Positions 3,482 to 37,522 of a stretch of 51,041 nucleotides of DNA are shown here, in pieces. Position 1 is the stretch's first letter; every line of letters starts with the position of its first letter. The stretch is taken from the sequence record SRR20825010_1521; one strand, 5' to 3'. The notes under the pieces are model-generated. The model saw only the letters and a list, made by a program, of their open reading frames with translations, searched no databases and was not told the DNA's origin. Made by a program: the position numbers and the translations under genes.

Positions 3482-4234
3482 TTAATGAAGTACCCCTTTT
3501 TTATTATATGCTGCGGCTGCAGCGCCAATAATGCCGGCATGATTTTGCAATTCCGCGGGAATTACCGGGGTTTCAATACTGATATAGTCCTTAAACTCGT
3601 CCCAATCCTTGGAGGTGCCTCCGCCTAGTATAATTAGATCCGGAGATACGATCAACTCCACAAACTCCAAGAAAATGTTAAATCGTTTGCCCCATTTCTT
3701 ATAACTAAGTTCTTCTCTTTCCTTGGCAGAAGCAGCGGCCCAAAGTTCAATTTTATCATATTTTTTATAGGGAATCTGGCCCAATTCAAAATTTGGTATC
3801 AAATCCCCATTGTAAAAGGCACCACTGCCCAGGCCCGTTCCTATAGTGATCATGAGCACGAGGCCATCCTTGCCCCGGCCTACACCGAAATTCATAGATG
3901 CATATCCTGCGGCATCAGCGTCGTTTACCACAGTAACCGGTAATCCCGTTGCCTCACTGAACAATTCATCTACATTTACACCGGCCCATCTTTTATGAAG
4001 ATTTCCTGGAGTCTTACAAACGCCATTTTTTATAACAGTTGGAAATCCACAGCCTATAGGTCCGCTATAATCAAAATGTTTTACAATTTTGGCTACTACT
4101 TCGGCCATGGGTTTTGGTTTTCTCGACTTCGGTGTCGGTATCCTAAACCGCTCCGTTATCATTTCACCAGTTTCCATATTTACTAAAGCTCCTTTTATGC
4201 CCGAGCCACCGACATCTATTCCTAGGATTTCCAT
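3482..4234 (-). CDS. ppgK: Polyphosphate glucokinase (ROK family)
   Basis: GIDVGGSGIKGA, NDADAAG, TIGTGLGS, PNFELG and AGIIGAA motifs. Confidence 0.9.
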   Translation of the reverse strand: MEILGIDVGGSGIKGALVNMETGEMITERFRIPTPKSRKPKPMAEVVAKIVKHFDYSGPIGCGFPTVIKNGVCKTPGNLHKRWAGVNVDELFSEATGLPVTVVNDADAAGYASMNFGVGRGKDGLVLMITIGTGLGSGAFYNGDLIPNFELGQIPYKKYDKIELWAAASAKEREELSYKKWGKRFNIFLEFVELIVSPDLIILGGGTSKDWDEFKDYISIETPVIPAELQNHAGIIGAAAAAYNKKGVLH

Positions 4235-11310: not shown

Positions 11311-11476
11311 AGGATACAGATTTGTTCCAATAGGGTTTAATACAGGCCTTTTGTTGGGTTTAAGGAATGTTTTACAGGCAGGTAGGGTAACCCGAACACT
11401 CGTAAATTTTTTAGTTTTGGACAGTTCCTAACTGGAAAAATATGTAGGTATCTACTAGATGATGTCTATTCTTTAA

Positions 11477-12160
11477 CTATACCGCACGCTGTATTACTTC
11501 AAACACCTTATTGCCATCGCATTTCAATGTTTTGGACGGATATTTAAGTATTAGGGCGTAGTCATGCGTGGCCATAAGAATGGTCCTTCCTGTTTTGTTG
11601 ATATCCTGAAGTACCTTCATCACTTCCACGCTGGTCTGGGGGTCGAGATTCCCCGTTGGTTCATCTGCCAGGATAAGATCCGGATCATTGAGCAGTGCCC
11701 GGGCAATGGCAATACGCTGCTGTTCCCCTCCGGAAAGTTCATGGGGAAATTTGAAGCCTTTAGTTTTCATGCCCACTTTATCCAGGACATCTTCAATCTT
11801 GGCGTTCATCTCGCTTTGGTCTTTCCAGCCGGTAGCTTTAAGTACAAAAAGGAGGTTGTTGTTTACGTTGCGATCTGGCAACAATTTAAAATCTTGAAAA
11901 ACCACTCCCAATTTTCTTCTTAAATATGGAATTTCCTTTTCCTTCAAGGTGGTAAGATCGAAATCTACAATATGGCCGCTTCCTTGTTTTAATGGAAGAT
12001 CGCCGTACAAAGTTTTCATAAAGCTGCTTTTCCCACTGCCCGTCTTTCCGATAAGGTATACGAATTCCCCTTTTTTAATTTCAAGGGAAATATCGTTCAA
12101 TACTAAATTTTCACCCTGAAATACCGCTACATCCGTCAACCTCAATATGCTTTCGCCCAT
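11477..12160 (-). CDS. ftsE: FtsE-like ABC ATP-binding protein
   Basis: Walker [42 protein letters not shown] and ATHD motifs. Confidence 0.8.
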
Positions 12161-12307: not shown

Positions 12308-15300
12308 ATGCTAAGAAAAAAAACCGCTGTAATACTGTGTTTTGTTGGGTCTTTATTTTACGTGAATGCCCAAGAATCCGAAATCTATACTTTTGACCAA
12401 AAGGACTATCAGGAAGCTTTGGCCTTGTATAACAATAAACAGTATCAAGCAGCCCAGACTATCTTTGAAAAGGTAAAAAACAATACCAGGGATGAAGAGA
12501 CCCAGGCCAACAGTGCTTATTATGCCGCTACTGCGGCAATTCGCCTAAATCAGTTGGGGGCCGATAGGTTAATGGAAGACTTTGTTGAAAAGTACCCAAC
12601 CTCTACCAAGCGTAATTCTGCCTATCTTGATGTTGCCGATTATTATTTTGCAACCGGAAAATATCCTTACGCCTTAAAATGGTATACCAAGGTAGACCAA
12701 AGTTCCATGTCCAGAAAGGACAAGGAACGCTTCAATTTTAACAATGGTTATGCCTTGTTCTCTTCCAACAAACCTAAAGAGGCCGAGCGTTATCTAAACC
12801 AGGTGACCACTTCCCCAACCTACGGCTCCCAGGCCAAGTATTACTTAGGGTATATTGCGTATCAGCAGGACGACTATGCACAGGCCAACCAGCGTTTCGA
12901 TCAGATTACCGACCAAGAGTTGTTGGAAGAAAAGTTGTCCTATTATCAGGCGGATATGAACTTTAAATTGGGCAAGTTCGAAGAGGCTATTGCCTTGGCG
13001 AAAAAACAATTGCCAAAATCTGATAGAAATGAAGTTTCGGAGCTCAATAAAATTATTGGGGAGAGTTATTTCAATCTTAAGCAATACGCCAATGCAATTC
13101 CTTATTTAACCGAATACAAGGGAAAAAGAGGTAAGTGGAGCAATACGGATTATTATCTGTTGGGCTATTCCTACTATATGCAGGGGGATTATGCCAATGG
13201 GATACAGCAATTCAACAAAATAATTGATGGCAACAACGATGTTTCCCAGAATGCCTACTATCATTTGGCGGAATGCTATTTAAAGCTTGACAAAAAACAG
13301 GAGGCATTGAACGCCTTTAGAAATGCTTCCCAAATGGATTTCAATCCGGAAATTCAGAAAGATGCCTATTTAAATTATGCCCGACTCAGTTATGAAATAG
13401 GGAATGCTTATGAGCCTGTACCCAAGGTGTTGACCAATTATTTGGAGAAATATCCCAATGATTCCAATAAAGCGGAGATGCAGGAGCTTTTGGTAGATTC
13501 TTACATTACTTCCAAGAATTTTGCCGGTGCCATGGAACTCTTGGAGAAAAACAAAAACTTTGCCAGTAAGGCCACTTACCAAAAGGTGGCGTTTTACCGT
13601 GGAGTGGAATTGTTCTTGGAGGGGAATTACGAGCAAGCATCGGCCGTGTTTAAAAAATCCTTGGACAATGCAGAAGACCAATATTTTAAGGCCAGGTCCA
13701 GCTACTGGAAAGCGGAATCGGATTATAATATGAATCATTTTGATGAGGCAGTGGCCGGATACCTTCAATTCAAATCAAATCCTAGTGCCAAGGCAACTCC
13801 GGAATTTAAAGACCTGAATTACAATCTGGCTTATACCTATTTCAAACTAAGAAATTATAATAATGCCATAACCTCGTTCTCCAGTTATGTGGAGACCGGT
13901 AGCGGCGATAGTGAAAAATTAAATGATGCCTATCTGCGCTTAGGGGATAGTTATTTTGTTAGTAGCAAGTATTGGCCTGCCATAGAAACGTATAATAAGG
14001 CAATAGCAAGAAATAGTGCCTCGAGCGATTATGCTGCCTACCAAAAGGCACTGAGCTATGGGTTTGTAGACAGGAGCGCTACCAAAATAGAGGAGCTTTC
14101 CAATTTTGTGTCCAGGTATCCCAACTCGTCGCTTAAGGACGACGCCATGTTTGAGCTCGCCAATTCCTATGTGAGGGCAAATAATACGGAAAGAGGGTTG
14201 CAACTGTACGATCAGCTCACCATGGATTATAAAGGCAGTTCTCTAGTGCCACAGGCTATGCTGCGTCAGGGATTGGTGCATTATAATGCCAACCGTAATG
14301 AACAGGCCTTGGCCAAATTCAAATCAGTGGTACGGGACCACCCAAACACTCAGGAAGCACTACAAGCCGTAACTACGGCCAAGCTTATTTATGTAGATCT
14401 GGGTAGGGTAAATGAATATGCCCAATGGGTAAAAGGTCTTGACTTTGTTGAGGTAACCGATACAGAACTGGACAATGCTACTTTTGAATCTGCGGACAAA
14501 CAATATATTGAAGGCAATCAGGATGCGGCCATAAAGGGTTATGAGGCCTATGTTAATCAATTTCCAAACGGATTAAATGCCTTAAAGGCTAATTTTAATT
14601 TGGCACAGTTGTACTTTGGCAAAGGTCAGAAGGACAGGGCATTGCCTTATTTTAAGAATGTGGCTGGCAAGGGAACCAACGAATATGCCGAGCAGGCACT
14701 TACAAGGGTGTGCGAGATCTATGTAGGCAAAAACGATTATGTTACGGCCATACCTTACTTGGAAGAATTGGAAACCAAGGCGGAAATTCAGCAGAATATC
14801 ACCTTTGCCCAATCCAATTTAATGAAAGGCTATTATGAGCGGTCAGACTACGGTAAGACCATTCAATATGCCACTAAGGTGTTGTCCAATTCCAATATAG
14901 ATAACCGTATAAAAAGTGATGCACAAATAATGATCGCCAGATCGGCCATTAAGACCAAGGATGAGAATAGGGCGGAAAAGGCGTATTCGGAAGTGCTTAA
15001 AATTGCGACTGGAGATTTAGCGGCCGAGGCGCTCTATTATGATGCTTATTTTAAAAATAAGGCCCAAAATTACGAGGCTTCCAACGCTTCTGTTCAAAAA
15101 TTGGCCAAGGATTATGCGGGGTATAAGGAGTGGAGCGCGAAAGGCTTGATCATTATGGCCAAGAATTTCTATGCCTTGGGAGATGCTTTCCAAGCTACTT
15201 ATATTTTGGATAGTGTTATTGCCAATTTCGGAGATTTTCCGGAAATAGTGGCCCAGGCCAAACAGGAGTCGTCCATTATTAAGGCAAAAGAAGCTCAAAG

Positions 15301-23640: not shown

Positions 23641-24924
23641 TTATTCTACTGACTTTATATTCTTTGCGAAATAATAGATAGATCCTACTCCAAGTGGAAC
23701 AAAGATGGCTATGGCCACAAAAATGGGGGTATAGGAAACTTTCGCAATTACGGGTACTAAAAAGTTCATGATGATCACTGAAAACACCCCTACCATACCA
23801 CCTAGACCAGCTAAAGATCCTACAGATTTACCACTAAAAAAGTCGCTCGGAAGGGTTTGGATATTGCCAATGGCAAACTGAAATCCGAACAGCACTATAA
23901 ATACGATCGCAACGAATTTCTCTGGAGTGTCCGCAAATAATATTGTTGATATAAGACCTAGGACCATGATAAGACCTCCTATGAAAATGGTGGTTTTCCT
24001 ACCTTTGTTTATTGAGTTTGTTTTCGCAATAATAACTCCGGAAACGTAGCCACCTGCTATACTCCCAATGGCTGCACCTACATAAGGAACCCACGCAAAC
24101 ATTCCCACTTCTTTTACGTTAAAGCCGTACACGTCAAATAAGTATATTGGCATCCAGCCTACAAATAGCCACCAGATAGGTTCTAAGAAGAATCTACTTG
24201 CAACAATGGCCCAAGATTCTTTATAGGAAAGTATTTCCTTAAGGCTTAATCCTTTTTGATCGTCAGTGGCATTTTGATCGGCTATACTTTGCCCTTCGGA
24301 AATAAATTTTCGCTCTTCCTCTGTTATCCAAGGATGCTTTTTTGGTCCTGCTTTATTAATTAAAAGCCAAGGAATAATCCATAAAAGACCTATGGCCCCA
24401 ACTATTATAAACGTCACCTCCCAACCATAGGCTACAAAAAGAAGTGCTATTAGAGGTGGTGCTATAACCGACCCAATGGAGGCCCCGGCATTAAATAAGC
24501 CTTGGGCTATGGCCCGTTCTTTTATTGGAAACCATTCGGCATTACTTTTTACTGCACCTGGCCAGTTTCCCGCCTCCGATAATCCTAAGGTAGTTCGGAA
24601 AAATGCCAAGGATAAAAAACCTCTTACTGTGGAATGCAATAAGGTGGACAAGCTCCAAATACCTATACTTATAACGTATCCAATCCTAGTACCAACTTTA
24701 TCGAAGAGCTTGCCCGAGAATAATTGTCCCAGGGCATAGGCAACCATAAAAATGTTTAGGATATAACTATAGTGATCTTTTGTGAGGCCCAAAGAATGGG
24801 ATATGGAACCTTCAACATTTTCATTGCCCCACATAATGGACAAAGCACTTCTGTCTATATAATTAATAACAGTTGCCAAAAATATAAGACCGATAATGAA
24901 CCAACGTAATCCTTTAATTTTCAT
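23641..24924 (-). CDS. exuT: MFS hexuronate transporter (ExuT-like)
   Basis: LRWFIIGLIFLATVINYIDR and EAGNWPGAVKSNAEWFPIKERA motifs. Confidence 0.88.
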   Translation of the reverse strand: MKIKGLRWFIIGLIFLATVINYIDRSALSIMWGNENVEGSISHSLGLTKDHYSYILNIFMVAYALGQLFSGKLFDKVGTRIGYVISIGIWSLSTLLHSTVRGFLSLAFFRTTLGLSEAGNWPGAVKSNAEWFPIKERAIAQGLFNAGASIGSVIAPPLIALLFVAYGWEVTFIIVGAIGLLWIIPWLLINKAGPKKHPWITEEERKFISEGQSIADQNATDDQKGLSLKEILSYKESWAIVASRFFLEPIWWLFVGWMPIYLFDVYGFNVKEVGMFAWVPYVGAAIGSIAGGYVSGVIIAKTNSINKGRKTTIFIGGLIMVLGLISTILFADTPEKFVAIVFIVLFGFQFAIGNIQTLPSDFFSGKSVGSLAGLGGMVGVFSVIIMNFLVPVIAKVSYTPIFVAIAIFVPLGVGSIYYFAKNIKSVE

Positions 24925-25159
24925 AGTATTTTGCTTTGGTTTGATATTATTTTTGCTATGTCATTTATAGGATATAGCAAGTAAGCGGATAAATTATCCG
25001 TGCTCTTTTAATACTTGAATTAGGCTTGAAAATATTGGAAGTATTTAAATCGTAATTTAAATACTACGCAAATTACGGTGTAATTTCAAGTATTATTTCC
25101 CTTCAGATTATTTTTTAAAGGCGATAAAAGTGTGCGATTTTATCCCTTGGTGATTTTTG

Positions 25160-25867
25160 TTAATCTTTAATATTGTAACAATATTGATATAGCATTTTAA
25201 AATGTACTTTCATTTTTTCCTTGGCCAATTGGGGATCCTGATTCTTGATGGCTTCATAAATGTCCCTATGCTCTTGAATTCCAATAAAAGCGATATTCTT
25301 GTCACAAACGTGATATTTGGCAAAGTTGGTAATGATCTCTGGCGTAATTGTTAGCATAAATGTATTTATGGTACTATTCCCGCTTGCTTTTGCTATTGCC
25401 AAGTGAAACAAAAGATCTTCCTGTACTGCGTCTTCACCATTCATTACCTTCTTTGAATAAGCCTCCAAAGCCTCCTCTATTTCTTTCAATTCCTCTTTGG
25501 TTCTTCTCAGCGCTGCCAACCTTACGGTTTTCAATTCCAATAGAATTCTTGTCTCTACCAAGGATTTGAAATCGGGTTTTTCAAGCCTTAGAATATCCGT
25601 GATCATACCATTTAATGCCACAGAACCTATATCGGCTACAAAGGTACCGCTCTGCGGCTTTGACTTTAATAGTCCATAGAATTCCAAAGTCTGAATTGCT
25701 TCCCTTACATTGCTTCTACTTACTTCAAAACTTTCTGAAAGCTTCCTTTCCGAGGGTAATTTGTCCCCTGGCTCCAGGTTCTTGTAATTTATGTAATCCC
25801 TAATCTTGGATATAATTTCTTTCTGAAGTGCGTCGTTTTCGTTTTTCGGGAGAATTTCTGTTTTCAT
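25160..25867 (-). CDS. FadR/GntR family repressor (AusR-like alginate regulator)
   Basis: HTH motif LPSERKLSESFEVSRSNVREA and FCD motif DLLFHLAIAKASGN. ATG 25867 preferred. Confidence 0.92.
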   Translation of the reverse strand: MKTEILPKNENDALQKEIISKIRDYINYKNLEPGDKLPSERKLSESFEVSRSNVREAIQTLEFYGLLKSKPQSGTFVADIGSVALNGMITDILRLEKPDFKSLVETRILLELKTVRLAALRRTKEELKEIEEALEAYSKKVMNGEDAVQEDLLFHLAIAKASGNSTINTFMLTITPEIITNFAKYHVCDKNIAFIGIQEHRDIYEAIKNQDPQLAKEKMKVHFKMLYQYCYNIKD

Positions 25868-25890
25868 ACTAATCTTATTAGTTCTACAAC

Positions 25891-25919
25891 TGGTTAACCA
25901 GATTGGTTTGTCAAATTTA
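25891..25919 (-). promoter_or_regulatory. GntR operator (2 boxes) overlapping the -7 element of the regulator gene
   Basis: TGGTTAACCA at 25891, degenerate TGGTTTGTCA at 25904, CAAATTTA at 25912-25919. Confidence 0.8.
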
Positions 25920-25989
25920 GGCATAAAACGCAATCGAGAAAAATATTACTCACTTATAATTCCTGCCTTTTTGCATTTAAGTTACTTTT

Positions 25990-26029
25990 AAAAAAAGTTC
26001 ACTGGCCTGACATCAAGCCAGTAAACTTT
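25990..26029 (-). terminator. Terminator downstream of susD
   Basis: Minus strand AAGUUUACUGGCUUG/CAGGCCAGUGAACUU stem (with G-U pairs) followed by a U tract. Confidence 0.85.
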
Positions 26030-26205
26030 AAAACAAAACTAACTAAACTACTAGTCCTTTAAGAGTGCGGTCCCATGTGTTCATATCCATTTATATATTC
26101 CATGCTTATAGTTTTACCTCCTGCTCAGAGGACCGCAACCCTGCAAATTCTTTTTTGTCCCTAGTCTATAAATAATCAACGACCTTGTGATAATTTTATC
26201 AAGGT

Positions 26206-27540
26206 TTAGTAACCATCATTTTGGGTAATAACTCCGTCGCTCGCAAGAATTTCTGAGTTTGGTATTGGAAACACATAGTAATCACTGCTAATCGTTGCTC
26301 CCATTTCAGCATCTACTGTTCCTGTTCTAACCAAATCAAACCATCTATGTCCTTCAAGGGCCAACTCCACTCTTCTTTCGTCTGCAATTGCCTGTCTTAC
26401 ATCTGCTTGCGAGCTTACCGTTCCTGTTAAACTGTTTAAGCCTGCCCTACTTCTTATAGGATCCAATAGTGGAAGTACAGTGGTTGCAGCGGAGCCAGTT
26501 TCATTCAGAGCTTCTGCGTGCATTAGAATAACATCGGATAACCTGAGTTCGATATAGTCCTGATCAAGAGCTCCTGTATATTTCTTACTACCATTCTGAT
26601 TATCAGTGTCAATAGTTAGCGCCTTTCTTAAATCCGTACCTCCTCCAGCGGCACTACTGGCGTCAAAAGCGGCAGTTAGGCGCGGGTCTAAAGGTGTAAG
26701 GGATTTTGTATCGGCCCCGCTAAACCATCCTACAAAGGTGGTGGCCGATCCATAGGCGTTTGGAACTGAAGTTGATAATTGGGTTGCAAAAATAATTTCT
26801 GAATTACCGTCTACTACAACGTTGGCAAAGTCGCTTTCCAAACTAATCCCTGCAGCAGCAGCGCCGCTTACTACAGTTCCAAGCGTTGTTGCAGCTTCGG
26901 AAAAATTACCTCTGTATAGATATACTTTTCCCAGAAATGCCTGAGCCGCGATTCTAGATGCGCGTCCACTGGCCAATCCAGAATTATCCAAACCTGCTAT
27001 TGCGGCCTGAAAGTCTGGAATGATTATGTTATTGTAAACGTCTGCAGCCGGTTGTCTTGTTAAAATGGACAAATCGGATGGGCTGGGTGAAGGAGATAAA
27101 TTTACGGTGACATCACCAAAAACCATCACCAATTTAAAGTAGGACAAAGCTCTTAGGAATTTGGCCTCAGCTATCTCAGTGGGCTTCGTTGAATTTTCAA
27201 TGACGTTATTCGCACTTAAGATTGCCTTGTACAAATTGCTATAGAATGGCCGAAAGAATTGCTCTACCAAATCCAAGCCTGCTAAATCTGCATTGTAGGT
27301 GTCAAATGAGGTATATGGGCTTTCTAACATCAACATATTGTCGGCCCTAAAGTCGCCCATCACACCCATTGGTGTTGAACCACCGGTCTGATAGTAATAC
27401 GCTGCATTCAGAACGGGTCCAAATTCCTCCAAACCACTGGATTCAAGTAATAGAGGTGGCGTTTGATCCAAATCGTTATCACATGCTGTTAACAACAACA
27501 AGGAAACTAAAACTGTATAAATAGATTTCATTTTTTTCAT
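26206..27540 (-). CDS. susD: SusD/RagB family glycan-binding lipoprotein
   Basis: Lipobox LTAC; AEAKFLRALSYF, LRLSDVILMHAEA and ERRVELALEGHRWFDLVR motifs. Confidence 0.93.
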   Translation of the reverse strand: MKKMKSIYTVLVSLLLLTACDNDLDQTPPLLLESSGLEEFGPVLNAAYYYQTGGSTPMGVMGDFRADNMLMLESPYTSFDTYNADLAGLDLVEQFFRPFYSNLYKAILSANNVIENSTKPTEIAEAKFLRALSYFKLVMVFGDVTVNLSPSPSPSDLSILTRQPAADVYNNIIIPDFQAAIAGLDNSGLASGRASRIAAQAFLGKVYLYRGNFSEAATTLGTVVSGAAAAGISLESDFANVVVDGNSEIIFATQLSTSVPNAYGSATTFVGWFSGADTKSLTPLDPRLTAAFDASSAAGGGTDLRKALTIDTDNQNGSKKYTGALDQDYIELRLSDVILMHAEALNETGSAATTVLPLLDPIRSRAGLNSLTGTVSSQADVRQAIADERRVELALEGHRWFDLVRTGTVDAEMGATISSDYYVFPIPNSEILASDGVITQNDGY

Positions 27541-27550
27541 GTTTTCTTTA

Positions 27551-30500
27551 TTAAAAATTAACATTTAGACCCAAAGTGAAACTTCTTACAATAGGGCTTG
27601 CACCTTCTTGGTATCCGTATGTAGTTGGACCTGCATAACCTGTATTTTCTATCTCTACACCTTCAGGGTTGAATGAGGTATAATCATCTGCCATTATATA
27701 CAACAAATTGGTAGCTGCAAGATATATTCTCATAGAACTTAGGCCAATTTTGTCCGTTAAATCCGAATTAAGGGTGTATCCTAAGGTTAGGTTTCTTAAA
27801 GCTGTAAATGAGGCATCTTGTATCCCTGAACCATGTGCATTTCTGGTCTCTTGATAAAACTTGCCGCTAGCATCGGCAATACCGTCACTATTGGCATCAA
27901 AACTGGACTTTAATCTACCGCCAAATTGTGATTTCCAGTAAATAGGGTCTATATTGTAGAGTTCTGCTCCTTGAGATCCTTGGAATTGGAACGAGAAATC
28001 AAAATTCTTAATATTCATTGAACTTGAAAGTCCCCAGTAGAAATCGGGAGTGGCGGATCCTAACTTTACATAATCCCCTTCATAGGTAATTTCGCCGTCA
28101 CCGTTTTGGTCTACAACATAGTATTCTCCACTTCCAAATCCAACACCTCTGGAAGGATCTGACATATGTATTGTCTCAACCTCACCAGTTACTTCATAAC
28201 CCCACATTTCACCGATTTCACCTCCTACATAGTTTCTAAACTCAGGACCTCTACCGCTGGGTCCACCGTAAATTTGCCTGGGCAGTTCCGTCAAATCACC
28301 AAGATTGGTAATTTCTGAATTGGCAGTTGATAAATTGGCGTTGACATTCCAAGAGAAGTTGGGATTGGTAATTATCTTTGTACTAAGTTCAAATTCCAGA
28401 CCGGAACTGGTAACATCCCCGCGATTAAGTTTTATAGCAGGTGTCCCAAGAACCTCGGAAACACTTTGATTTATCAACATATCTTCAACATCAGACGTAT
28501 AATAATCTACACTTAATCTAATACGGTTACTAGCAAAACCTAAATCAACACCATAGTTGGTCTCTTTATTGGTCTGCCAAGTTAAATCTGGGTTGGCTAT
28601 ATCCTCTGGAATAAGAAATCCTGTCCCGAAAGCTGTTGGAGAGGTGCCCAAAATACTTAATGAGTTGTATGAGCCTAAGAAAGAAGCAGTTCCCAAAGAG
28701 CCGGTACTAAACCTAAGTTTAAATAGGCTAAACGCATCGGCATTTCCGAAAAAAGATTCATTGTGAATATTCCAACCTAAGGATAGTGCTGGGAATACTG
28801 CGTATTTTTCATTGGCTCCAAATCGTGAATCGCCATCCCTTCTAATTGATGCCGATAGTAGATAACGATCATCAAAGGCATAGGCAATTCTTCCAAAAAA
28901 ACCATTTCTGGACTGAGTCTCATCGATCTCGTTGGTAATCACATCTGCAGGATCGAAAAAATCATAATTCAATGGCAGACCATATGGTACGTTCGATCCA
29001 TTATTTACCATGCCCTTATAATAGGTGTTTACAAATTCCATACCGGCCACCGCAGAGATGTCATGCTTCTCAGCAATTACTTTTGCATAACTCAAGGTAG
29101 TTGTGCTTAGGACGGTAGATTTTTTAATATTGGATATGTCCAATTCTGTTTGATTGGAACGTTGTTGGCCATCCGATAATATTCCATGATATACATAGGT
29201 CTGGGTATCTTCAAGATCTGCTCCGAAAACGGTTTTTAAATTTAAACCCTCTATGATTTCATATTGTAAATAAGAACTCACGTTCCCAAAATACGTTTTT
29301 TTCCATCTTCTCGAATTGTCAAATTTAGCCGCTACACCAGCATCTCCTGTTCCTCCAATTCCATTTTGATTTCTACCGTATTGCCAATCGTGAACTACAT
29401 CGCCAGGTTGTAAATCATAAATGCTAGTAGGATCCAAACCTATACCTCTGTAATCTTGGTCAAATGACCTACCAATGTTATTTCCTGTAAATCCAGAATC
29501 GAATAAGGCCTGTCTATCTCGATCCAATTGTTGAACGAAATCTATTGAAGCTTGAGTATGGTATATAGGGCTAATACTATATGACCTCAAAAGATCCCTC
29601 ATTTCCCAAGGTACAATATCTTGGTGGCCATAATAACCATTCATACTCAATCCGGCCTTTAATTTGGAGCCCAAGTTGGCATCTAGGTTCATACGTCCGT
29701 TGTACCTTTCATAACCTTGCCCTTTTACTATACCATCCGTTTTCAAGTAACCAAGTGAAGCAAAGGCCTTTAAGTTTTCAGAACCACCGCTAACACTAAA
29801 ATCGTGATTGGTTGTGCTACCGTTTTTGAAAAGCCAATCTTCTATACTTACTACGTCGGGGGCATTAGCGTATGCATTTAGTCTGTAAGCCAATAGACCT
29901 GGGTCGGTTTCGGAAAGATCATAAGCACTAGTTTGCAATTCTTCGGCCCATTCTCCTGCTGTCTTAAGCATTTCGATGTCCTTTATATACTTGCTTGAGG
30001 TACTTGCATAAGAATTATAATTAAAACTAACTTTTCCTGCCTTTCCTTTTTTGGTGGTTACCAAAATAACACCATTGGCACCTAGAGAACCATAAATAGC
30101 AGCTGAAGCGGCATCTTTTAGCACCTCTAGACTTTCAATATCGTTGGGGTTAACTGTGGCCAAATTACCTGAAATTGGGTAGCCATCCACAACAATTAAC
30201 GGCCCAGAGTCGCCCGAAACAGATGAAGCTGCCCTGATTTGAATCTTAGGATCCGCACCAGGTTCTCCACTTTGATTTTGAATTCGTACCCCGGACAACT
30301 TACCTGCAAGGGCATCATCTACACGAGCCACTTGAACAGCAGCTACTTCATCTCCTCCTACTTTTGCGACCGCTCCGGTAAGATGTGATTTTTTTATAGT
30401 ACCATATCCAACTACCACTACCTCATCAAGTTGACTTGCATCTTCCTGTAGGGTGATATTCAATTGTTCTTGATTTGTAATGGGGACTGATTGGCTAACA

Positions 30501-30733
30501 AATCCCAAGGAGGAGAACTGTAGTACGTCGCCGTTTTTTACCGTAATTTGGTAATTTCCATCAAAGTCGGTAGCCGTACCGGTAGTAGTATTGGCTATAA
30601 TTACATTCACTCCAGGCACTGGTACCTGAGAAGCATCTGTTACCGTTCCGGTCAGAATACGGCCATCTTGGGCGAACAGTGCAATATTGAATAACAATAC
30701 TACTGTTAGAATTAAATTGATTTTGAATTTCAT
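27551..30733 (-). CDS. susC: SusC/RagA TonB-dependent transporter
   Basis: LDEVVVVGYG and DIESLEVLKDAASAAIYGS.GANGVILVTTKKG motifs; C-terminal GLNVNF. Confidence 0.97.
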   Translation of the reverse strand: MKFKINLILTVVLLFNIALFAQDGRILTGTVTDASQVPVPGVNVIIANTTTGTATDFDGNYQITVKNGDVLQFSSLGFVSQSVPITNQEQLNITLQEDASQLDEVVVVGYGTIKKSHLTGAVAKVGGDEVAAVQVARVDDALAGKLSGVRIQNQSGEPGADPKIQIRAASSVSGDSGPLIVVDGYPISGNLATVNPNDIESLEVLKDAASAAIYGSLGANGVILVTTKKGKAGKVSFNYNSYASTSSKYIKDIEMLKTAGEWAEELQTSAYDLSETDPGLLAYRLNAYANAPDVVSIEDWLFKNGSTTNHDFSVSGGSENLKAFASLGYLKTDGIVKGQGYERYNGRMNLDANLGSKLKAGLSMNGYYGHQDIVPWEMRDLLRSYSISPIYHTQASIDFVQQLDRDRQALFDSGFTGNNIGRSFDQDYRGIGLDPTSIYDLQPGDVVHDWQYGRNQNGIGGTGDAGVAAKFDNSRRWKKTYFGNVSSYLQYEIIEGLNLKTVFGADLEDTQTYVYHGILSDGQQRSNQTELDISNIKKSTVLSTTTLSYAKVIAEKHDISAVAGMEFVNTYYKGMVNNGSNVPYGLPLNYDFFDPADVITNEIDETQSRNGFFGRIAYAFDDRYLLSASIRRDGDSRFGANEKYAVFPALSLGWNIHNESFFGNADAFSLFKLRFSTGSLGTASFLGSYNSLSILGTSPTAFGTGFLIPEDIANPDLTWQTNKETNYGVDLGFASNRIRLSVDYYTSDVEDMLINQSVSEVLGTPAIKLNRGDVTSSGLEFELSTKIITNPNFSWNVNANLSTANSEITNLGDLTELPRQIYGGPSGRGPEFRNYVGGEIGEMWGYEVTGEVETIHMSDPSRGVGFGSGEYYVVDQNGDGEITYEGDYVKLGSATPDFYWGLSSSMNIKNFDFSFQFQGSQGAELYNIDPIYWKSQFGGRLKSSFDANSDGIADASGKFYQETRNAHGSGIQDASFTALRNLTLGYTLNSDLTDKIGLSSMRIYLAATNLLYIMADDYTSFNPEGVEIENTGYAGPTTYGYQEGASPIVRSFTLGLNVNF

Positions 30734-30868
30734 TAGTGATTTAATTAAGTTAGTAACAAGTGATTAATAATGGCTTTTTGCCATTGGTTTCTATAATGTG
30801 ATATTGTTCACATTTAATCCTTCATATTACTAAAACATGTGGCTGCACTAATATTGACTGAAATTGCT

Positions 30869-30978
30869 TATTTTTGCAGTAAATATGTATATAGTAATAT
30901 TTGCATGTTTGGTATTACTTCCCTTCAGAATGAAGTAATCTTTTACAAAAGGATGGGTGTGCGCCCGTCCTTTTTTTT
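30869..30978 (+). ncRNA. Candidate cis-antisense sRNA in the susC leader (coordinates include its -7 element)
   Basis: TATTTTTG at 30869-30876, hairpin ATTACTTC/GAAGTAAT, and terminator GGAUGGGU/GCCCGUCC plus U8 whose G-U pairs form only on the plus strand. Confidence 0.5.
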
Positions 30979-31045
30979 GTCAATTTCTAGGGTTTATTTT
31001 TAATCTTTTTTCTTTTAACATGGTTATTGCTGTTTTGAGTTATTT

Positions 31046-31087
31046 TGGTAAACCAAATTGGTTTACCAGTTTGGTTTACCAAATATA
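31046..31087 (-). promoter_or_regulatory. GntR operator (3 boxes) overlapping the -7 element of the susC promoter
   Basis: TGGTAAACCA at 31046, TGGTTTACCA at 31059 and 31072 (13-bp period), CAAATATA at 31080-31087. Confidence 0.88.
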
Positions 31088-31195
31088 TGTTATTAATTTG
31101 TTAATTAAAAATTTAATTACAAATTTTGTTTGTTAAATTTTTATTTCTGCTAATTTGAGGTTATAAAAATTAGCAAATTCGTATTTATTTGTATT

Positions 31196-31948
31196 TTATG
31201 AAAAGGCAAGTCCACCGTTAATATCAATGTTTGCCCCTGTAATAAAGGAAGTTTCGGAAGATGCCAAGCAGGCTACCGTATTTGCAATTTCCTCTGCAGA
31301 TCCTTCCCTACGAAGTGGGGTCATTCCCGCGACTTTCTCCCTAACCTCATCCGTGGTGAAGGTATCGTGAAAGGTAGTGGCGATCATACCGGGACAAAGG
31401 GCATTTACTCGAATATTTTTTGGGCCTACCTCTTTGGCCAGACCTCGAGTAAAAGTCATTATGGCTCCTTTGGAGGTTGCGTAAGCTATAGATCCTCCGC
31501 CCCCGCCATCCCTACCGGCCTGGGAGGCTATATTTACTATGGAAGCCCCAGATTTCATATGGGGCAGGACAGCTTGGGTTACCAAGAAGGTAGAATTGAG
31601 ATTTAATTTTATCACCCTGTCAAAAAAGGCTTCATCCATTTCAGCTATGGTCTTTCTGGCAACCAGGCCACCGGCGTTGTTTACCAAAATGTCTATAGCA
31701 TCTCCATAACTGCTAACCGCTTCCTTTACGAGTCTATCTACTTCAGATTTTTTGGTCACATCGGCCTTAACGATTATGGCTTCCCCGCCGTCCGATTTAA
31801 TTGCATTTAGAGTTTCTTTGGCGTTTGCTTCATTGCTAAAGTAATTAACTACGACCTTGGCACCTTCCTTGGCCAATTTAATGGAAATGGCTTTTCCAAT
31901 ATCTCTGGTTCCACCAGTTACAATGGCTATTTTTCCTTTTAAATTCAT
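31196..31948 (-). CDS. SDR oxidoreductase (second DEH(U) reductase-like enzyme)
   Basis: TGGTRDIG, NNAGGL, GGGGGSIAYATSKG and PGMIATTFH motifs. Confidence 0.85.
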   Translation of the reverse strand: MNLKGKIAIVTGGTRDIGKAISIKLAKEGAKVVVNYFSNEANAKETLNAIKSDGGEAIIVKADVTKKSEVDRLVKEAVSSYGDAIDILVNNAGGLVARKTIAEMDEAFFDRVIKLNLNSTFLVTQAVLPHMKSGASIVNIASQAGRDGGGGGSIAYATSKGAIMTFTRGLAKEVGPKNIRVNALCPGMIATTFHDTFTTDEVREKVAGMTPLRREGSAEEIANTVACLASSETSFITGANIDINGGLAFS

Positions 31949-32445: not shown

Positions 32446-34500
32446 TTACTTTGGGGGTGTGCCCTGACCAACGGTTGCTTCCCTAAACCATACTTCCGTA
32501 TAACATCCGTTTTCGTATTGTTTGGCGATATCACCTCCATAGGTTTCGGCACCTGAAAACCAAACCATGTTGGTTTCTGGACTTTTTCCATTGGTCTGGT
32601 TATATGCGCCCTGTTTAAAATAATTCAATTCTCCACTATAGGCAGTGGCACGTTCAACGTCGTCTTGCCCTATGGGGGCGAATAAATACTTCATCTGTTC
32701 TGGGAAGTCCGACTTTTTTACATATTCTGATGCAATCAGATTTTTGGTAAATGTTTTGGTTTCGTGATTTTCACTTTTGAAGGTTAGATACATGATTCCT
32801 TTATAAACATTTACTTCATAACTAAATTCTTCACCTAATTCAATGCCATTTTTAGGTTCAGCAGGAAAGTCGTTTTTGCCTTTCCCAATGACGGACATAT
32901 CGTTCCCCCATACGGCATAGGAATGTTCCCACCGGCCTGAATTATCATCACCTGCTGGATTGATTTCATAATTCCAAAAAACGGAACCCTTGTTGTGACC
33001 AGGAAACTTCTTGTAGAATATTTTTAGTGGTTCATTTTCATGTCCCTCACCGCTGTGAATTTGCCCGACAACAGTGGAATAAGAGGCAGCAACTCTGGCA
33101 TCGCCAGAAATGGAGACCTGCATTACCTTGCAGGTGCCTGTTAATTTGCCACCTTCTTCAGGGAGCCATTCTCTTTTTTCGTGTAGCTCGGTTCTTGTGT
33201 TACTGGAGTTTTTTGAGGTGACACCAGAATTGGGAGTTTTGTAGACTACCCAACGCCTTGTACCGTCTATTACGGTGTAGAAATAATCTTTGTGTTCGAA
33301 CTGTGTGATATCTTCCACCTCCTTACCGTCACCCAGCAATATTTTAAATTTATCCATAAATGGAATCACCTCATTGGGATAGACCGTTTTAGTACTTAGG
33401 CCATCATTTGCTTCGAAATAACCTGTATTTGAAATGGCATCATCGCTGATTGTAATATCCGCTGATTTAAACCATACCTCAGCGTAATTACCATCTGCAT
33501 ATTGTTTTTGTAAATCACCACCATGGGTTTCGGCACCAGAACACCAAACTTTATTGATTTTAGGGTCTTTTCCGTTGGTTTGGTTGTACGTGCCCAATTT
33601 AAAAAATAGGCCCTCGCCGGTATACGCTTCTTTGCGCTCGAGGCCATCCTGCCCAATGGGTACAAATAATTTCTTGGTTTGCTCTGGCATGTCCGAAAGA
33701 TTTGCATATTCTGAGGAAATAAGATTTTTAGTGAATTTTTTGGTTTCATGGCCTTCACTCGTGAATGTTAGATACATCATACCTTCCTTAATAACTACTT
33801 CATAAGTGAATTCTTCACCTAAAGCAATTCCGTCAACTGGTTCAGGTGGATAGGTGTTTTCATCAGTACCGACAACAGAAAAGTCAAAGCCCCATATAGG
33901 ATAGGAATAATCCCATCTTTTGGAATTATCATCACCTGCAGTATTTATTTCGTAATGCCAAAAGACAGAGCCTTTTTCATGCCCAGGAAATTTTTTATAG
34001 AAGATTTTAAGTGGTTCGTTTTCATGCCCATCTGCACTGTGAATCTGACCAACTACTACTGAATACGTTGAAGCAACGCTGGCATCGCCGGTAGTTGACA
34101 CGTTCATTACCTTTAGGGTAGCTTTCATAGTAGCTTCTGTCATTGGTGTCCACTTCTTTAATTGGGCCAATTCTGTTCTTGTGTTGTTCGAGGTACCATG
34201 GGTATTTCCTGCATTTGGAGTTTTGAATACTACCCAATCCCCTTGATTATCACTCGCAGTATAAAAGAAATTCTTGTGCTCATAGTCAATAGCTTGGCCT
34301 ACATTAGAGCCATCACCGAGGATCAAATTCCAATGTTGAAAAAATGGTATGATGTCGTTTGGAATACGACCTATAGCTGCGTTTTCAGTATCGTCTGTAG
34401 ATTTTTGTTTTTTGTTCTCGGCACAGCCAACAAATAGCAAAATGGTACTTATCATGAATAAATAATGTACGGAAGCCGAATGGAATACTTTAAAGTTCAT
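32446..34500 (-). CDS. Lipoprotein alginate lyase with two tandem PL7 domains
   Basis: Lipobox FVGC. Domain 1: RTELAQ / GQIH / FFKLGTYNQ. Domain 2: RTELHE / GQIH / YFKQGAYNQ. Confidence 0.92.
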   Translation of the reverse strand: MNFKVFHSASVHYLFMISTILLFVGCAENKKQKSTDDTENAAIGRIPNDIIPFFQHWNLILGDGSNVGQAIDYEHKNFFYTASDNQGDWVVFKTPNAGNTHGTSNNTRTELAQLKKWTPMTEATMKATLKVMNVSTTGDASVASTYSVVVGQIHSADGHENEPLKIFYKKFPGHEKGSVFWHYEINTAGDDNSKRWDYSYPIWGFDFSVVGTDENTYPPEPVDGIALGEEFTYEVVIKEGMMYLTFTSEGHETKKFTKNLISSEYANLSDMPEQTKKLFVPIGQDGLERKEAYTGEGLFFKLGTYNQTNGKDPKINKVWCSGAETHGGDLQKQYADGNYAEVWFKSADITISDDAISNTGYFEANDGLSTKTVYPNEVIPFMDKFKILLGDGKEVEDITQFEHKDYFYTVIDGTRRWVVYKTPNSGVTSKNSSNTRTELHEKREWLPEEGGKLTGTCKVMQVSISGDARVAASYSTVVGQIHSGEGHENEPLKIFYKKFPGHNKGSVFWNYEINPAGDDNSGRWEHSYAVWGNDMSVIGKGKNDFPAEPKNGIELGEEFSYEVNVYKGIMYLTFKSENHETKTFTKNLIASEYVKKSDFPEQMKYLFAPIGQDDVERATAYSGELNYFKQGAYNQTNGKSPETNMVWFSGAETYGGDIAKQYENGCYTEVWFREATVGQGTPPK

Positions 34501-34665: not shown

Positions 34666-34694
34666 TGGTTTACCAGATTGGTTTACCAAAAATA
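34666..34694 (-). promoter_or_regulatory. GntR operator (2 boxes) overlapping the -7 element upstream of the PL7 gene
   Basis: TGGTTTACCA at 34666 and 34679, CAAAAATA at 34687-34694. Confidence 0.85.
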
Positions 34695-35136: not shown

Positions 35137-37446
35137 TTAATACATTAAGTTCATTTCTAAATTCTCCTCAACCCTTATTTCTCCGGAATTGTTGATTTCA
35201 TTGTTCTTATGTGAATTGTTTTTCGCTCCCCAAAGTAAGGCCACCAGTTTTACCGGATTGTTGTTAAAGGTATTATTGAAAATATCAACATTTACAATGC
35301 CGTGGGAGTTGATCAGAATTCCATTTTTTTCTTCTGATCCACAATTCGTGAAGGTGCTATTTGTAACCAGAAGATTTCCGCCAATGGTGGATTCGTCGTA
35401 ACCCCCGCGATAGTAGTCGATTACATTACTTTTTACATTGTTGAACTTACAATTGTTTATCGTTAGATATTCAGTGTTATAATCTCCTAGATCATTAGTT
35501 TCTTCAGAAAGTTCCAAACCATTTTCGCAATTTGATATTGAAGTATTTTCAAAAGTGATACGTTCTGCAAAGGACTCCTTATACACTTTTAAAACATAAT
35601 TAAAATCACTGATATCGCAATCGGAAACCGTTAATCTAAAATGTGTAAACATATTTTCTTTTAAACTGGCAAATGTATATTGGGAATTATTTCCTTTTAA
35701 TGTTACATTTTTTAGGTTTAAAAAGCCTTTAGGTTGAAGTTGGAATAAGGGTGAATTCTCTGCTCCCGAATAATTTAGGGTAACTTTTGATTTATCGGAG
35801 GATTGAATAGTTAACTTTTTGTTGATTATCAAGGACTGCGGGATGTCATAATTTCCTGCTTCCAGCGAAATGATATCGCCATTTTCCGCCTCATTGATTT
35901 TAAATTGAAGATTTTCTGCTGTGGCAACAACTACTGTTTTAGGTTCTTTTTCTTCTGTTTCAGATGAATACCAACTTGGGCCATATTTGGATCTGTCCAA
36001 AATATTGGGGTCTTCAAAATCCGTATTTGTGAAAGCTCCTATAGAATTGTTTTCAGCTCTGGAATTGCTGACCAAATCTTTGGATATATTTTCAAATTCG
36101 AATCCTTGGTAGGGTTCAATATCTATCTTGGAGGAAGGGATAAGGATGTTTTCTCCAATTTCTTTAATGTCAAAATTTACAGCCTTCAATCCATCATAAG
36201 GTTTGATATCCACACCTTGATTATTTATTGCGTTCCTTTTAAAGGTCACTCCATCAGCCTTATCGTGTTCAACAATTGGCAAAGCATCACCCTTTTCATT
36301 ATAAATTACGTTGTTTGCAACAATGGTCCTTATTGGTCTGGCCGAGCGAATTTCAGAGGAAGGAAGAACATCTTGCTGACTTAAATTTTGACCAACTCCG
36401 AATTGCCAGGGGGAATCACAATTGATGTAGGTATTGTATGCCACCACAACATCTGTAACCTGATTGTATCTGTTTAGGGGTGATTTTGGAATTCCGTTCA
36501 TCACGGCCAAGGCACTTCTAAAATTCTTTCCTTTTATATTATAGAAGTAATTGTTGGTTACCCAATGTCCAGTATTGATAATTCTGATACCTCCTATGTT
36601 TTCGTTCTTACCATCGCCAATGAAGTAATTGCCATCAATAGTGCAGTAATTGCCATGTCTTGTTACCAAAGAACCTTCGCTTTTATAAAAGACATTATTT
36701 CTGAACTCATTGAAGTTAGTTTTGCTGGAAATAATTTCTACTTCACCGTTGCACTCTTCAAATAAGTTATTGGCAACCCTTGTATAACTTGGGGACATAG
36801 AAGAAAAGCTGTTGCCAATTTGAATGGTCTCGCCACTGGCACCTCCCTTAGGGGGTCTTGGCCCAAAATGGTTGTTAATGATTTGATGGTAATTATTTAT
36901 GCTCTCATTGCCTTCCAAGTCTACCCTTATAGTTGGTCCACGATTTGTTTTTCCAGCAATATAACTGTTGCTCAAAGTATTGTGTCTTCCCCAGAATTGA
37001 ACCCATAGATCAGTGTCATCTCGATGCATTTTGTTAAAATCCTCAATAACGCAATTGGTAATGGTGCAGTGATTTGCTATCGTATTCTCATCTATTTTAA
37101 ATTCCAATACAGCTTCACTGCGCGAATAACCATTTCTAAAGTGCAGACCATCCACCACTAAGTATTCCCCTCCAAATTTTAGATCGGATACGCCTTCAAT
37201 AAAAACTTTTCCAGGGGTTTCGGCCTTAATTGTAATTGGCTTGTCTTCCGTGCCTTCGCCTATAAATCTAATTTGGATATCCTTCCATATACCATTGGCC
37301 ATCACAATATTATCACCTGCCTGTACATTTTTTAGGGCTTCTTCCAATTCTTGGGGAGTGCCTACTGTTTTGGTATTAAGATTGGTCTTTTCCCCACAAG
37401 CGCCGATAATAAACAAAAAGCAAAGTAATGTTACTAGTCTTGTCAT
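35137..37446 (-). CDS. PL6 alginate lyase (chondroitinase-B-like beta-helix, two domains), lipoprotein
   Basis: Lipobox IGAC; AETPGKV, NHFGPRP, GEVEIISSK, LVTRHGN and YYRGGYDESTIGG motifs. Confidence 0.92.
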   Translation of the reverse strand: MTRLVTLLCFLFIIGACGEKTNLNTKTVGTPQELEEALKNVQAGDNIVMANGIWKDIQIRFIGEGTEDKPITIKAETPGKVFIEGVSDLKFGGEYLVVDGLHFRNGYSRSEAVLEFKIDENTIANHCTITNCVIEDFNKMHRDDTDLWVQFWGRHNTLSNSYIAGKTNRGPTIRVDLEGNESINNYHQIINNHFGPRPPKGGASGETIQIGNSFSSMSPSYTRVANNLFEECNGEVEIISSKTNFNEFRNNVFYKSEGSLVTRHGNYCTIDGNYFIGDGKNENIGGIRIINTGHWVTNNYFYNIKGKNFRSALAVMNGIPKSPLNRYNQVTDVVVAYNTYINCDSPWQFGVGQNLSQQDVLPSSEIRSARPIRTIVANNVIYNEKGDALPIVEHDKADGVTFKRNAINNQGVDIKPYDGLKAVNFDIKEIGENILIPSSKIDIEPYQGFEFENISKDLVSNSRAENNSIGAFTNTDFEDPNILDRSKYGPSWYSSETEEKEPKTVVVATAENLQFKINEAENGDIISLEAGNYDIPQSLIINKKLTIQSSDKSKVTLNYSGAENSPLFQLQPKGFLNLKNVTLKGNNSQYTFASLKENMFTHFRLTVSDCDISDFNYVLKVYKESFAERITFENTSISNCENGLELSEETNDLGDYNTEYLTINNCKFNNVKSNVIDYYRGGYDESTIGGNLLVTNSTFTNCGSEEKNGILINSHGIVNVDIFNNTFNNNPVKLVALLWGAKNNSHKNNEINNSGEIRVEENLEMNLMY

Positions 37447-37483: not shown

Positions 37484-37522
37484 TGGTTAACCAGATTGGT
37501 TAACCAAAAATACGTATATTTG
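37484..37522. promoter_or_regulatory. GntR operator with back-to-back divergent promoters
   Basis: Perfect TGGTTAACCA at 37484 and 37497. Minus-strand -7 CAAAAATA at 37505-37512; plus-strand -7 TATATTTG at 37515-37522. Confidence 0.85.

Follow-up and report, generated by a model that had tools for sequence, protein, structure and literature searches.

Among marine carbon sources, the alginate of brown algae holds a major place, and it is turned over mainly through the polysaccharide utilisation loci (PULs) of flavobacteria. As regards the control of PULs by small RNAs (sRNAs), DonS, of which Cao and colleagues reportedly gave an account in 2016, is said to be a cis-antisense sRNA that represses PULs in gut Bacteroides. 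In Bacteroides thetaiotaomicron, FopS and GibS base-pair with the 5' regions of PUL messengers and repress them, and FopS corresponds to a 14-copy family, which targets the translation start region of susC messengers, is countered by RbpB and has been deposited in Rfam 15 (PMC11697453, in the passages available). For flavobacterial alginate PULs, the only regulatory model is the AusR system of Zobellia, as far as it is covered by the available passages of its description, to which all statements below on this system refer (Dudek et al., 2020; PMC7641319). There, the GntR repressor AusR was characterised together with a FadR-type consensus, given as TKGTN2-3ACMA or TGGTWWACCA; ausR is induced 32-fold and the genes behind it much more, and transcripts of ausR alone dominate without alginate. 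The model leaves open how exuT and the cytoplasmic enzymes encoded behind the weakly regulated ausR come to be induced to about the same degree as the other genes of the system, and the uncoupling of ausR from exuT2, with neither a promoter nor an AusR site in between, is left unexplained, conditional termination or decay being proposed (PMC7641319). The present analysis concerns a stretch of 51,041 nt from the sequence record SRR20825010_1521, hereafter the window, which is an Arenibacter alginate utilisation locus built like the AusR-controlled system of Zobellia, and, within it, an 18-nt segment found both in the ausR-exuT intergenic leader (the exuT site, S1) and in the leader of susC (the susC site, S2). 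With moderate confidence, and on comparative grounds, we propose that an antisense sRNA encoded in the susC leader pairs in trans with the ausR-exuT leader.

Compared with the system of Zobellia galactanivorans, the window exhibits the same gene order, namely lyases, a kdgF-like cupin, a short-chain dehydrogenase/reductase (SDR), SusC/SusD, a GntR/FCD regulator, an MFS transporter (ExuT), a second SDR and a KDPG aldolase (Dudek et al., 2020; PMC7641319). The operators are of the same type, TGGTWWACCA, and are distributed alike, with three copies at the susC promoter, two at each lyase promoter and one before the regulator, and the intergenic region of about 230 nt between the regulator and exuT is likewise devoid of an operator and of a -7 box (PMC7641319). 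The RNA element considered here is no part of the logic of the AusR regulon as described in those passages, and the terms “sRNA” and “antisense” have no occurrence in the passages of the paper that were searched (PMC7641319).

On direct reading, the 18-mer GTATTATTTCCCTTCAGA (positions 25090-25107) is identical to GTATTACTTCCCTTCAGA (30912-30929) at 17 of 18 bases, as announced in the original prediction, which had also rightly placed both copies in transporter-gene leaders. Both lie upstream of genes transcribed from the minus strand, the first at 166-183 nt before the start of the MFS (ExuT-like) gene at 24924 and 53 nt past the stop codon of the GntR/FCD regulator, the second at 179-196 nt ahead of the SusC start at 30733. 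When the window was searched with up to three mismatches, three matches were obtained, namely S1, S2 and 14170-14187, against a shuffle expectation of 0.12, and none of 100 shuffles gave three or more; the third match (minus strand, three mismatches) is at chance level. The genome-wide count that the original prediction had put forward as a check gave, in the nearest genome (G001, 5.6 Mb) and with up to two mismatches, the equivalents of S1 and S2 as the only two matches. Since the reversed pattern used as control likewise gives two matches in this genome, loose matches to the 18-mer are not rare, and the unusual part is the exact pair 5.8 kb apart. A family-wide scan of 201 genomes (up to two mismatches) matched 85 of them, with a reversed control comparable by eye; it was set aside as too noisy and served solely to choose exact matches and pairs about 5.7 kb apart.

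The likeness between the two sites is wider than the 18-mer. When the upstream regions are aligned, both also share a hairpin loop that reads CGCACAC on the gene strand and lies 22-27 nt ahead of the 18-mer, so that both sites carry a bipartite element, i.e., a hairpin with an xGCACy loop followed 22-27 nt later by a purine core and TAATAC. This element occurs at both sites across genera of Flavobacteriaceae, which bears out the conservation in orthologous loci that had been suggested as a further check. A model of S1 built on the first 70 nt of the leader (R2) recognises S1 with 70.9 bits and, on the sense strand, also S2 with 24.3 bits (E=0.007), which makes the two sites recognisably homologous. 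The exuT leader appears to carry a diverged copy of a susC-leader stretch, of which only the loop UCGCACAC (25130-25137) and the 18-mer have been kept.

The co-variation between the two sites is the central piece of evidence. Around AusR orthologues, 79 loci from many genera of Flavobacteriaceae were considered, yielding together with the window 76 ausR-exuT intergenic regions and 57 susC upstream regions. The variable bases scored were, on the one hand, the two bases before AGGG in the core (GA, GG or AG), and on the other hand, the loop flanks x (C or T) and y (A or G) of xGCACy; all four states could be read in 39 genomes, the remainder being without one region (contig end) or without an element. 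The core dinucleotide is the same at S1 and S2 in 38 of the 39 genomes, with L075 as the exception, and the loop flanks agree in 38 of 39 as well, with L119 as the exception. For instance, within Arenibacter the loop reads CGCACA at both sites in the window and in L042, L043, L044, L046, and L050, and TGCACA at both sites in four others. When placed on a tree of AusR and ExuT, core position -1 changed the same way at both sites in all 8 of 8 independent pairs (sign test, p=0.008), core position -2 in about 3/3, loop flank y in 3/3 and loop flank x in one (three when counting unsupported branches), with no change in the opposite way. In several lineages, specific 3' extensions are also shared by S1 and S2, e.g., ATACTTAAAC in Aquimarina and AAACTTATTA in a Mariniflexile. 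In local alignments of S1 with S2 over 38 unique genomes, cognate pairs score 26.3 vs. 20.8 for non-cognate pairs, a difference reached in 0 of 10000 permutations, the cognate partner coming first in 10 of 38. By contrast with the shared patches, the stems are unrelated between the sites, GGACGGG/CCCATCC at S2 vs. GATAAAA/TTTTATC at S1, the latter with 42 variants. As such, two patches of complementarity between S1 and the candidate sRNA are kept by co-variation while the stems between them drift, and the retention of loop sequences at both sites together with variable stems would correspond to the hallmark of a kissing-loop interaction. With GA, GG and AG states and loop-flank states changing together at both sites, the case for co-variation between an sRNA and its target is unusually clean.

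The susC leader itself is kept family-wide. On the gene strand it comprises in order the operators and a -7 box, about 90 nt, a run of A (a U run on the plus strand), the hairpin GGACGGG-TGCACG-CCCATCC, TTTT, and the hairpin ATTACTTC-loop-GAAGTAAT, the loop of which ends in the purine core. Some 40 nt beyond the latter hairpin lies CAAAnnTA, the complement of the flavobacterial sigma-A -7 box TAnnTTTG, and an exact copy of this antisense -7 box is carried by 39 of the 47 unique leaders, always at a distance of 31-44 nt from the hairpin. In the window the conserved box is TATTTTTG (30869-30876, plus strand), and given that the flavobacterial -7 box occupies positions -12 to -5 (PMC9723704, in the passages available), a plus-strand RNA would start at about 30881. 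The candidate cis-antisense sRNA would then span about 98 nt (30881-30978, plus strand) inside the susC leader (30734 to about 31075, minus strand) and be composed of (i) a variable 5' hairpin, (ii) a middle or seed hairpin, AUUACUUC-CCUUCAGAAU-GAAGUAAU (30914-30939), whose loop and 5' arm are the complement of S1, the 18-mer of S2 lying at 30912-30929, and (iii) an intrinsic terminator, AAAAGGAUGGG-UGUGCG-CCCGUCCUUUU plus a U run (30947-30978), whose loop is complementary to the S1 loop. A terminator scan returned 30947-30974 followed by a T run on the plus strand, i.e., the G+C-rich hairpin and U run of an intrinsic terminator. The strand on which these structures operate can be read from their base pairs. 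Among 42 aligned terminator sequences, one pair is U.G in 33, which fits the plus strand because the gene strand would have a C.A mismatch, and another shows a compensatory exchange between GC and AU in 18. Among unique terminator stems, pairs valid only on the antisense strand outnumber those valid only on the sense strand by 4 to 1; among unique middle-hairpin stems, non-Watson-Crick pairs valid only on the plus strand number 4 vs. 0 for the sense strand, and the 8-bp stem of the middle hairpin does not vary over 42 sequences. The covariance model built for the sRNA (R1) finds a single significant copy in the window (116 bits, E 2.6e-26) and, among 151 genomes (one per genus), matches 28, of which 27 carry it as a single copy; the remaining one, G117, has two matches 18 kb apart on one contig (G117:C22:15392-33776). 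Rfam gave no match at gathering score over the whole window, and at E<=1 over 24850-31250 its sole match is a spurious miRNA on the operator palindromes. From these sequence features, the susC site appears to encode a candidate cis-antisense sRNA, antisense within the susC leader inside a PUL, with its own promoter box and terminator.

Two further observations were made around this leader. Between the promoter of the candidate sRNA and the susC start codon (about 30793-30838, minus strand) lie other conserved blocks, TTAGTAA.TTGAAGG and a hairpin AATGTGA...TCACATT. In a Kriegella-like metagenome genome, a second S2-like element of the form …CTGAAGGGAAGAAATAC…ACATGCACATA… (L040:2230-2300, same record as L083) precedes a second AusR-like gene by about 670 nt, no susC adjoining it.

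At the exuT site, on the contrary, the signals are those of a messenger. The ausR-exuT intergenic leader (24925-25159, minus strand; 235 nt) holds S1, more hairpins and a block at about 25023-25041 that reads TTCCAGAAATTTTTAGC in most genera; its length and layout are conserved across genera, with several covarying hairpins, and its appearance is that of a structured regulatory leader independent of S1, without an Rfam match. Throughout these leaders, the stop codon is followed after about 15-25 nt by a hairpin whose stem covaries and whose loop is TTGCACGC; about 20 nt beyond this hairpin come (T)GAAGGGAA, 0-3 variable bases and TAATACTTAGA, then further hairpins. In the window, the S1 hairpin, with the stem GGGAUAAAA/UUUUAUC (25123-25146, minus strand) and its loop at 25130-25137, sits just past the ausR stop codon and is the proposed kissing partner of the terminator loop of the candidate sRNA, possibly also serving as the 3' hairpin of ausR; the 18-mer, UCUGAAGGGAAAUAAUAC in the mRNA (25090-25107, minus strand), is the proposed site of seed pairing. 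Among 42 unique stems of the S1 hairpin, G.U pairs valid on the mRNA strand number 41 and those valid only on the other strand 9, and compensatory changes are present. An antisense -7 box occurs in 6 of 54 leaders with no fixed position, and R1 reaches 10.4 bits (E=8) on the plus strand at S1. Because of the strand signals, the -7 box and the R1 scores, S2 is read as an antisense RNA gene and S1 as a messenger structure rather than as a gene for a sibling sRNA.

Other features of the exuT leader deserve mention. The original prediction had pointed to an 11-bp long-range stem, and a perfect inverted repeat is indeed found, with its 3' arm at 25009-25019 (minus strand) and its 5' arm at 25085-25095, overlapping the last 6 nt of the 18-mer; relatives retain 8.8 of the 11 pairs vs. 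7.9 in the control, which only weakly suggests a conserved feature. Near the exuT start, TTATTTTTGC is present at 24947-24956 as predicted, and the -7-like box TATTTTTG within it (24948-24955, plus strand) together with a weak terminator-like hairpin (24985-25001, plus strand) could, judging from the letters, produce a very small antisense RNA in this strain; the nearest relatives, L041 and L042, have a box of the CAACAATA type. Three other interpretations of the motif were considered and rejected, namely (i) a mini open reading frame (ATG AAG GGA ACT AAT ACT TAA in some Maribacter-like leaders), the “start” of which is CTG, TTG, TAG, AAG, or GTG elsewhere and the frame of which is broken by a 1-nt deletion in L068, (ii) a Shine-Dalgarno-like GGAGG, which is not followed by a start codon at a workable spacing and which shifts jointly at S1 and S2 to GAAGG or AGAGG, and (iii) a sense-strand promoter at either motif, no conserved TAnnTTTG being found after S1.

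The two elements also tend to be present and lost together. In 51 unique genome pairs, S1 and the loop core of S2 are both present in 40, both absent in 8 and discordant in 3; of the discordant ones, L066 and L097 have the S2 core without S1, and L080 failed the pattern, its core being present with altered arms. In L078, L079, L095, L100, and L111, S2 retains its stem with a decayed loop core, and S1 is either absent or cut short. When the S1 model was run on the same 151 genomes, its 14 matches all fell within the 28 genomes matched by R1, and none (0/123) among those without it. In 13 of the 14, the S1 match is separate from the sRNA match and shares a contig with it, lying 1.2-10 kb away on the other strand, and the fourteenth match (G002) is S2 itself on the sense strand. 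In G140 (C1:2460206-2461536), the sRNA and S1 elements are just 1.2 kb apart, which implies another gene arrangement.

Cofolding of the candidate sRNA with its proposed target is in keeping with this picture. Over 37 genomes, the cofold gain is -16.5 kcal/mol with the own leader vs. -11.9 kcal/mol with the leaders of others, and no permutation out of 10000 did as well; the window itself yields -19.4 vs. -3.6 +/- 2.0 for shuffled targets, with 0 of 200 reaching it. The predicted helix joins the 18-mer with the 5' arm and loop of the middle hairpin through the sRNA bases GGUAUUA.CUUCCCUUCAG, which agrees with the claim in the original prediction that the minus-strand S1 messenger is complementary to the hairpin arm and loop of the sRNA. 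As for further targets, a search by 12-mer in G001 and G205 gave counts at control level, and no further target is claimed for that reason. As a whole, the trans target put forward in the original prediction, i.e., the exuT leader for the antisense sRNA of the susC leader, is supported comparatively by co-variation, strand-specific structures and co-occurrence.

If the sRNA does pair in this way, it would act in cis on the susC leader, and in trans its terminator loop may first contact the S1 loop, before the 18-nt seed zips with the loop and 5' arm of the middle hairpin. Pairing would repress the exuT leader by cleavage or by early termination after ausR. Once alginate lifts AusR repression, the burst of complementary susC leader RNA would consume the sRNA and free the exuT leader, and the exuT-sdr-aldolase genes, themselves without an AusR operator, would come under the control of the susC promoter region, the outer- and inner-membrane uptake of alginate being thereby tied together. 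Such a relay would have AusR control the susC promoter only, the susC leader serve as a sponge for its own antisense sRNA, and the operator-less ausR-exuT leader open in consequence, so that one repressor could govern a second transcription unit while ausR stays basal. The pairing model would explain the uncoupling of ausR from exuT2 in Zobellia, with the stronger induction of the genes behind ausR and the prevalence of ausR-only transcripts when alginate is lacking, and the existence of an intergenic region with neither promoter nor operator.

Several points weigh against the reading proposed here. The relay from AusR to the sRNA, with a negative effect and titration, is put forward tentatively and is on balance doubtful, its sign and the titration step being inferred. 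Half of the sRNA-bearing genomes sampled (14/28) have no detectable S1, from which it follows that the sRNA must also serve a function without it. In the co-variation analysis, three loop states were misread by the pattern and set by hand before the tree analysis; the tree of AusR and ExuT is a locus tree that does not resemble a tree of species, and genomes that are kin do not count as independent. At S1, the bases that separate GGGAA from TAATAC are free to vary, and the duplex formed by the 18-mer holds an internal A:C mismatch. None of the listed leaders has a clear -33 element ahead of the -7 box of the sRNA. RNAduplex run with the full sRNA against 240-nt tiles of the window proved unspecific, the exuT leader at -48.4 being surpassed by other tiles at -52 to -57, and these scores were replaced by the cofold gain with controls. 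Lastly, the transcripts of a relative with the same elements, G205 (locus L136; S2 core at 11680, S1 at 4063), show no peak over the predicted sRNA (11635 to 11697 or 11731) in reads of 100 nt, in which an RNA of 63-97 nt could not be represented because of that very length, and, should the abundant RNA there be antisense, it would be longer than predicted and start upstream of the predicted -7 box.

For G205, the susC leader was examined with raw paired reads of 100 nt from two runs of a single sample, together with two older contig sets, the read orientation being uncalibrated. One orientation is deep at 11513-11617 (about 130-180) and falls to zero by 11723, the other is low (4-9) over the whole leader, and in each run five molecules start at 11682/11683, where the motif begins. 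Seven Ts come immediately after the motif hairpin on the plus strand (11694-11700), and this hairpin could, from its sequence, itself terminate transcription ahead of the second terminator. If the first mate is sense, the abundant RNA would mark the 5' end of the susC messenger at the motif. With an antisense first mate, which is what most stranded kits produce, the abundant RNA would be an antisense transcript ending at the U run past the motif hairpin, with none passing the second terminator, and this is the more natural reading because no promoter motif was found ahead of 11695 on the gene strand. In either orientation, the sharp RNA boundary at the motif hairpin and U run is compatible with the sRNA model, and ambiguous. 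In an older run, an isolated 168-nt contig covers only 11446-11613, i.e., the susC start region and proximal leader, and hints at a discrete short RNA there.

Four other explanations of the paired sites have to be weighed against a trans-acting antisense sRNA. In the first instance, a third party, either an RNA-binding protein or another sRNA, could recognise the hairpin with the GCAC loop and the purine core on both sense leaders, the cis-antisense RNA being idle at S1. Such a reader would account for the same order and similar spacing of the element on both sense leaders and for the S1 model finding the sense strand of S2 as its second-best match in the window; the five molecules in each of two runs of one G205 sample whose end falls exactly on the first motif base would suit it too, and an RNA-binding protein or a metabolite acting on the ausR-exuT intergenic region is suggested for Zobellia (PMC7641319). 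Yet a sense reader would want both hairpins on the sense strand, whereas the pairs that are C.A on the sense strand at S2 are G.U on the antisense strand and only the wobbles of S1 are sense; a protein would moreover need to track repeated flips at four separate positions, and for an RNA there is no candidate, the 12-mer occurring genome-wide at chance frequency. A third party is for these reasons considered unlikely.

Secondly, S1 could be a relic or a homogenised duplicate, i.e., a functionless leftover of a duplication of the susC leader that stays alike by chance, ancestry or gene conversion, and it does resemble a decayed copy of S2 reduced to patches. Against this, conservation of the patches extends over at least 14 genera, the intervening sequence, both stems included, having diverged, the changes are coupled between the sites, and the loop core of S2 decays upon loss of S1. 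Besides, patches of 6-18 nt split by unlike sequence and 5.8 kb apart make S1 and S2 poor substrates for gene conversion. We regard a relic as quite improbable.

A third view, which figured among the alternatives of the original prediction, is that S1 encodes its own plus-strand sRNA, a paralogue of the S2 sRNA by common descent. The homology of the two sites and the box TATTTTTG (24948-24955) with its weak terminator-like hairpin (24985-25001) would suit such a sibling, but the R1 score at S1 is negligible, the -7 box has no fixed place among exuT leaders and is altered in the closest relatives L041 and L042, and the wobbles of S1 favour the mRNA strand by 41 to 9. Furthermore, the observed co-variation of the sites would not be expected of two independent cis-antisense RNAs, which nothing would compel to remain similar, and very little credence is left to a sibling RNA. 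Finally, that the 18-mer is a DNA operator through which AusR or another regulator acts at two promoters of the locus, a protein-binding alternative also raised beforehand and prompted by both copies lying upstream of transporter genes with a GntR regulator encoded in between, is barely credible, since the pattern TGGTWWACCA is found in the window at neither 18-mer and its copies sit elsewhere, in the Zobellia arrangement, the 18-mer is not palindromic, the intergenic region has neither a -7 box nor an AusR site in the available passages on Zobellia (PMC7641319), stem co-variation involving G.U pairs points to RNA, and repeated co-variation would be hard to reconcile with a protein site.

Regarding the setting of the candidate sRNA and its proposed target, all genes between 20.7 and 37.4 kb lie on the minus strand and were assigned by Pfam. 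In the order of transcription, they encode a PL6-type lyase (35137-37446), a PL7 alginate lyase (32446-34500), a cupin next to an SDR (31196-31948), the SusC-like TonB-dependent transporter (27551-30733; CarbopepD_reg_2 and Plug) with its leader of about 340 nt holding S2, SusD (26206-27564), the AusR-like GntR/FCD regulator (25160-25933; GntR and FCD), the ExuT-like MFS transporter (23641-24924; MFS_1), which is the first gene past the ausR-exuT leader, and, beyond it, the second SDR, the KDPG aldolase and an Nramp transporter. The regulator is 66-81% identical to orthologues in other genera, its closest relatives being those of Arenibacter species (93-98% identity). Exact operators of the AusR type, TGGTWWACCA, occur as a triple at 31046-31081, overlapping the -7 box of the susC promoter (31087-31080, minus strand) in the layout given for Ptbdt of Zobellia (PMC7641319), as doubles ahead of the lyase genes (34666-34688 and 37484-37506), and as a single copy at 25891-25900. 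The longest open reading frame of the regulator has 257 aa, but orthologues align only from residue 23, which places its true start probably near 25867, and the single operator would then be located upstream of the gene and not inside it. By its sequence, the window would hold the complete predicted core of the AusR regulon.

If true, pairing of the antisense sRNA with the exuT leader would extend the sRNA control of PULs from gut Bacteroides to marine Flavobacteriaceae, and the tentative relay from AusR to the sRNA would provide the first sRNA circuit described in a marine flavobacterial PUL and supply a mechanism behind the uncoupling of ausR and exuT2 reported in 2020. Full-text searches returned no sRNA described in a marine flavobacterial alginate locus, subscription journals being largely outside its coverage. 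A conserved antisense RNA and a co-evolving site in the ausR-exuT region amount to a concrete hypothesis that can be tested by mutation.

Comparison with known systems can be drawn at several levels. In enterobacteria, the sRNA ChiX silences sugar uptake until a “trap” transcript from the chbBC intergenic region consumes it, which couples outer- and inner-membrane uptake. The present locus is alike only under the inferred titration model, where the consumer would be the sRNA's own cis-antisense partner, and the organisms, sequences and likely protein helpers are unrelated. CopA/CopT and RNAI/RNAII exert kissing-loop antisense control as plasmid-borne cis pairs; they resemble the present elements in having complementary loops, with conserved loop sequences, drifting stems and a longer duplex forming thereafter, but here the loop contact would take place in trans between diverged copies. 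PUL sRNAs of the DonS type are reportedly located likewise inside a PUL, antisense to the region ahead of a susC-like gene; the differences lie in the marine Flavobacteriaceae, the GntR-regulated alginate locus, the lack of an Rfam match and the proposed second site in trans within the same locus. With FopS and GibS, the likeness consists in an sRNA pairing with the 5' regions of PUL messengers, which is predicted here, and, unlike FopS, the candidate sRNA is single-copy, lies far upstream of both start codons and has no match in Rfam 15 (PMC11697453, in the passages available). What would be new, as far as can be read from sequence comparison, is a single-copy cis-antisense PUL sRNA candidate with a co-evolving second site in the same locus.

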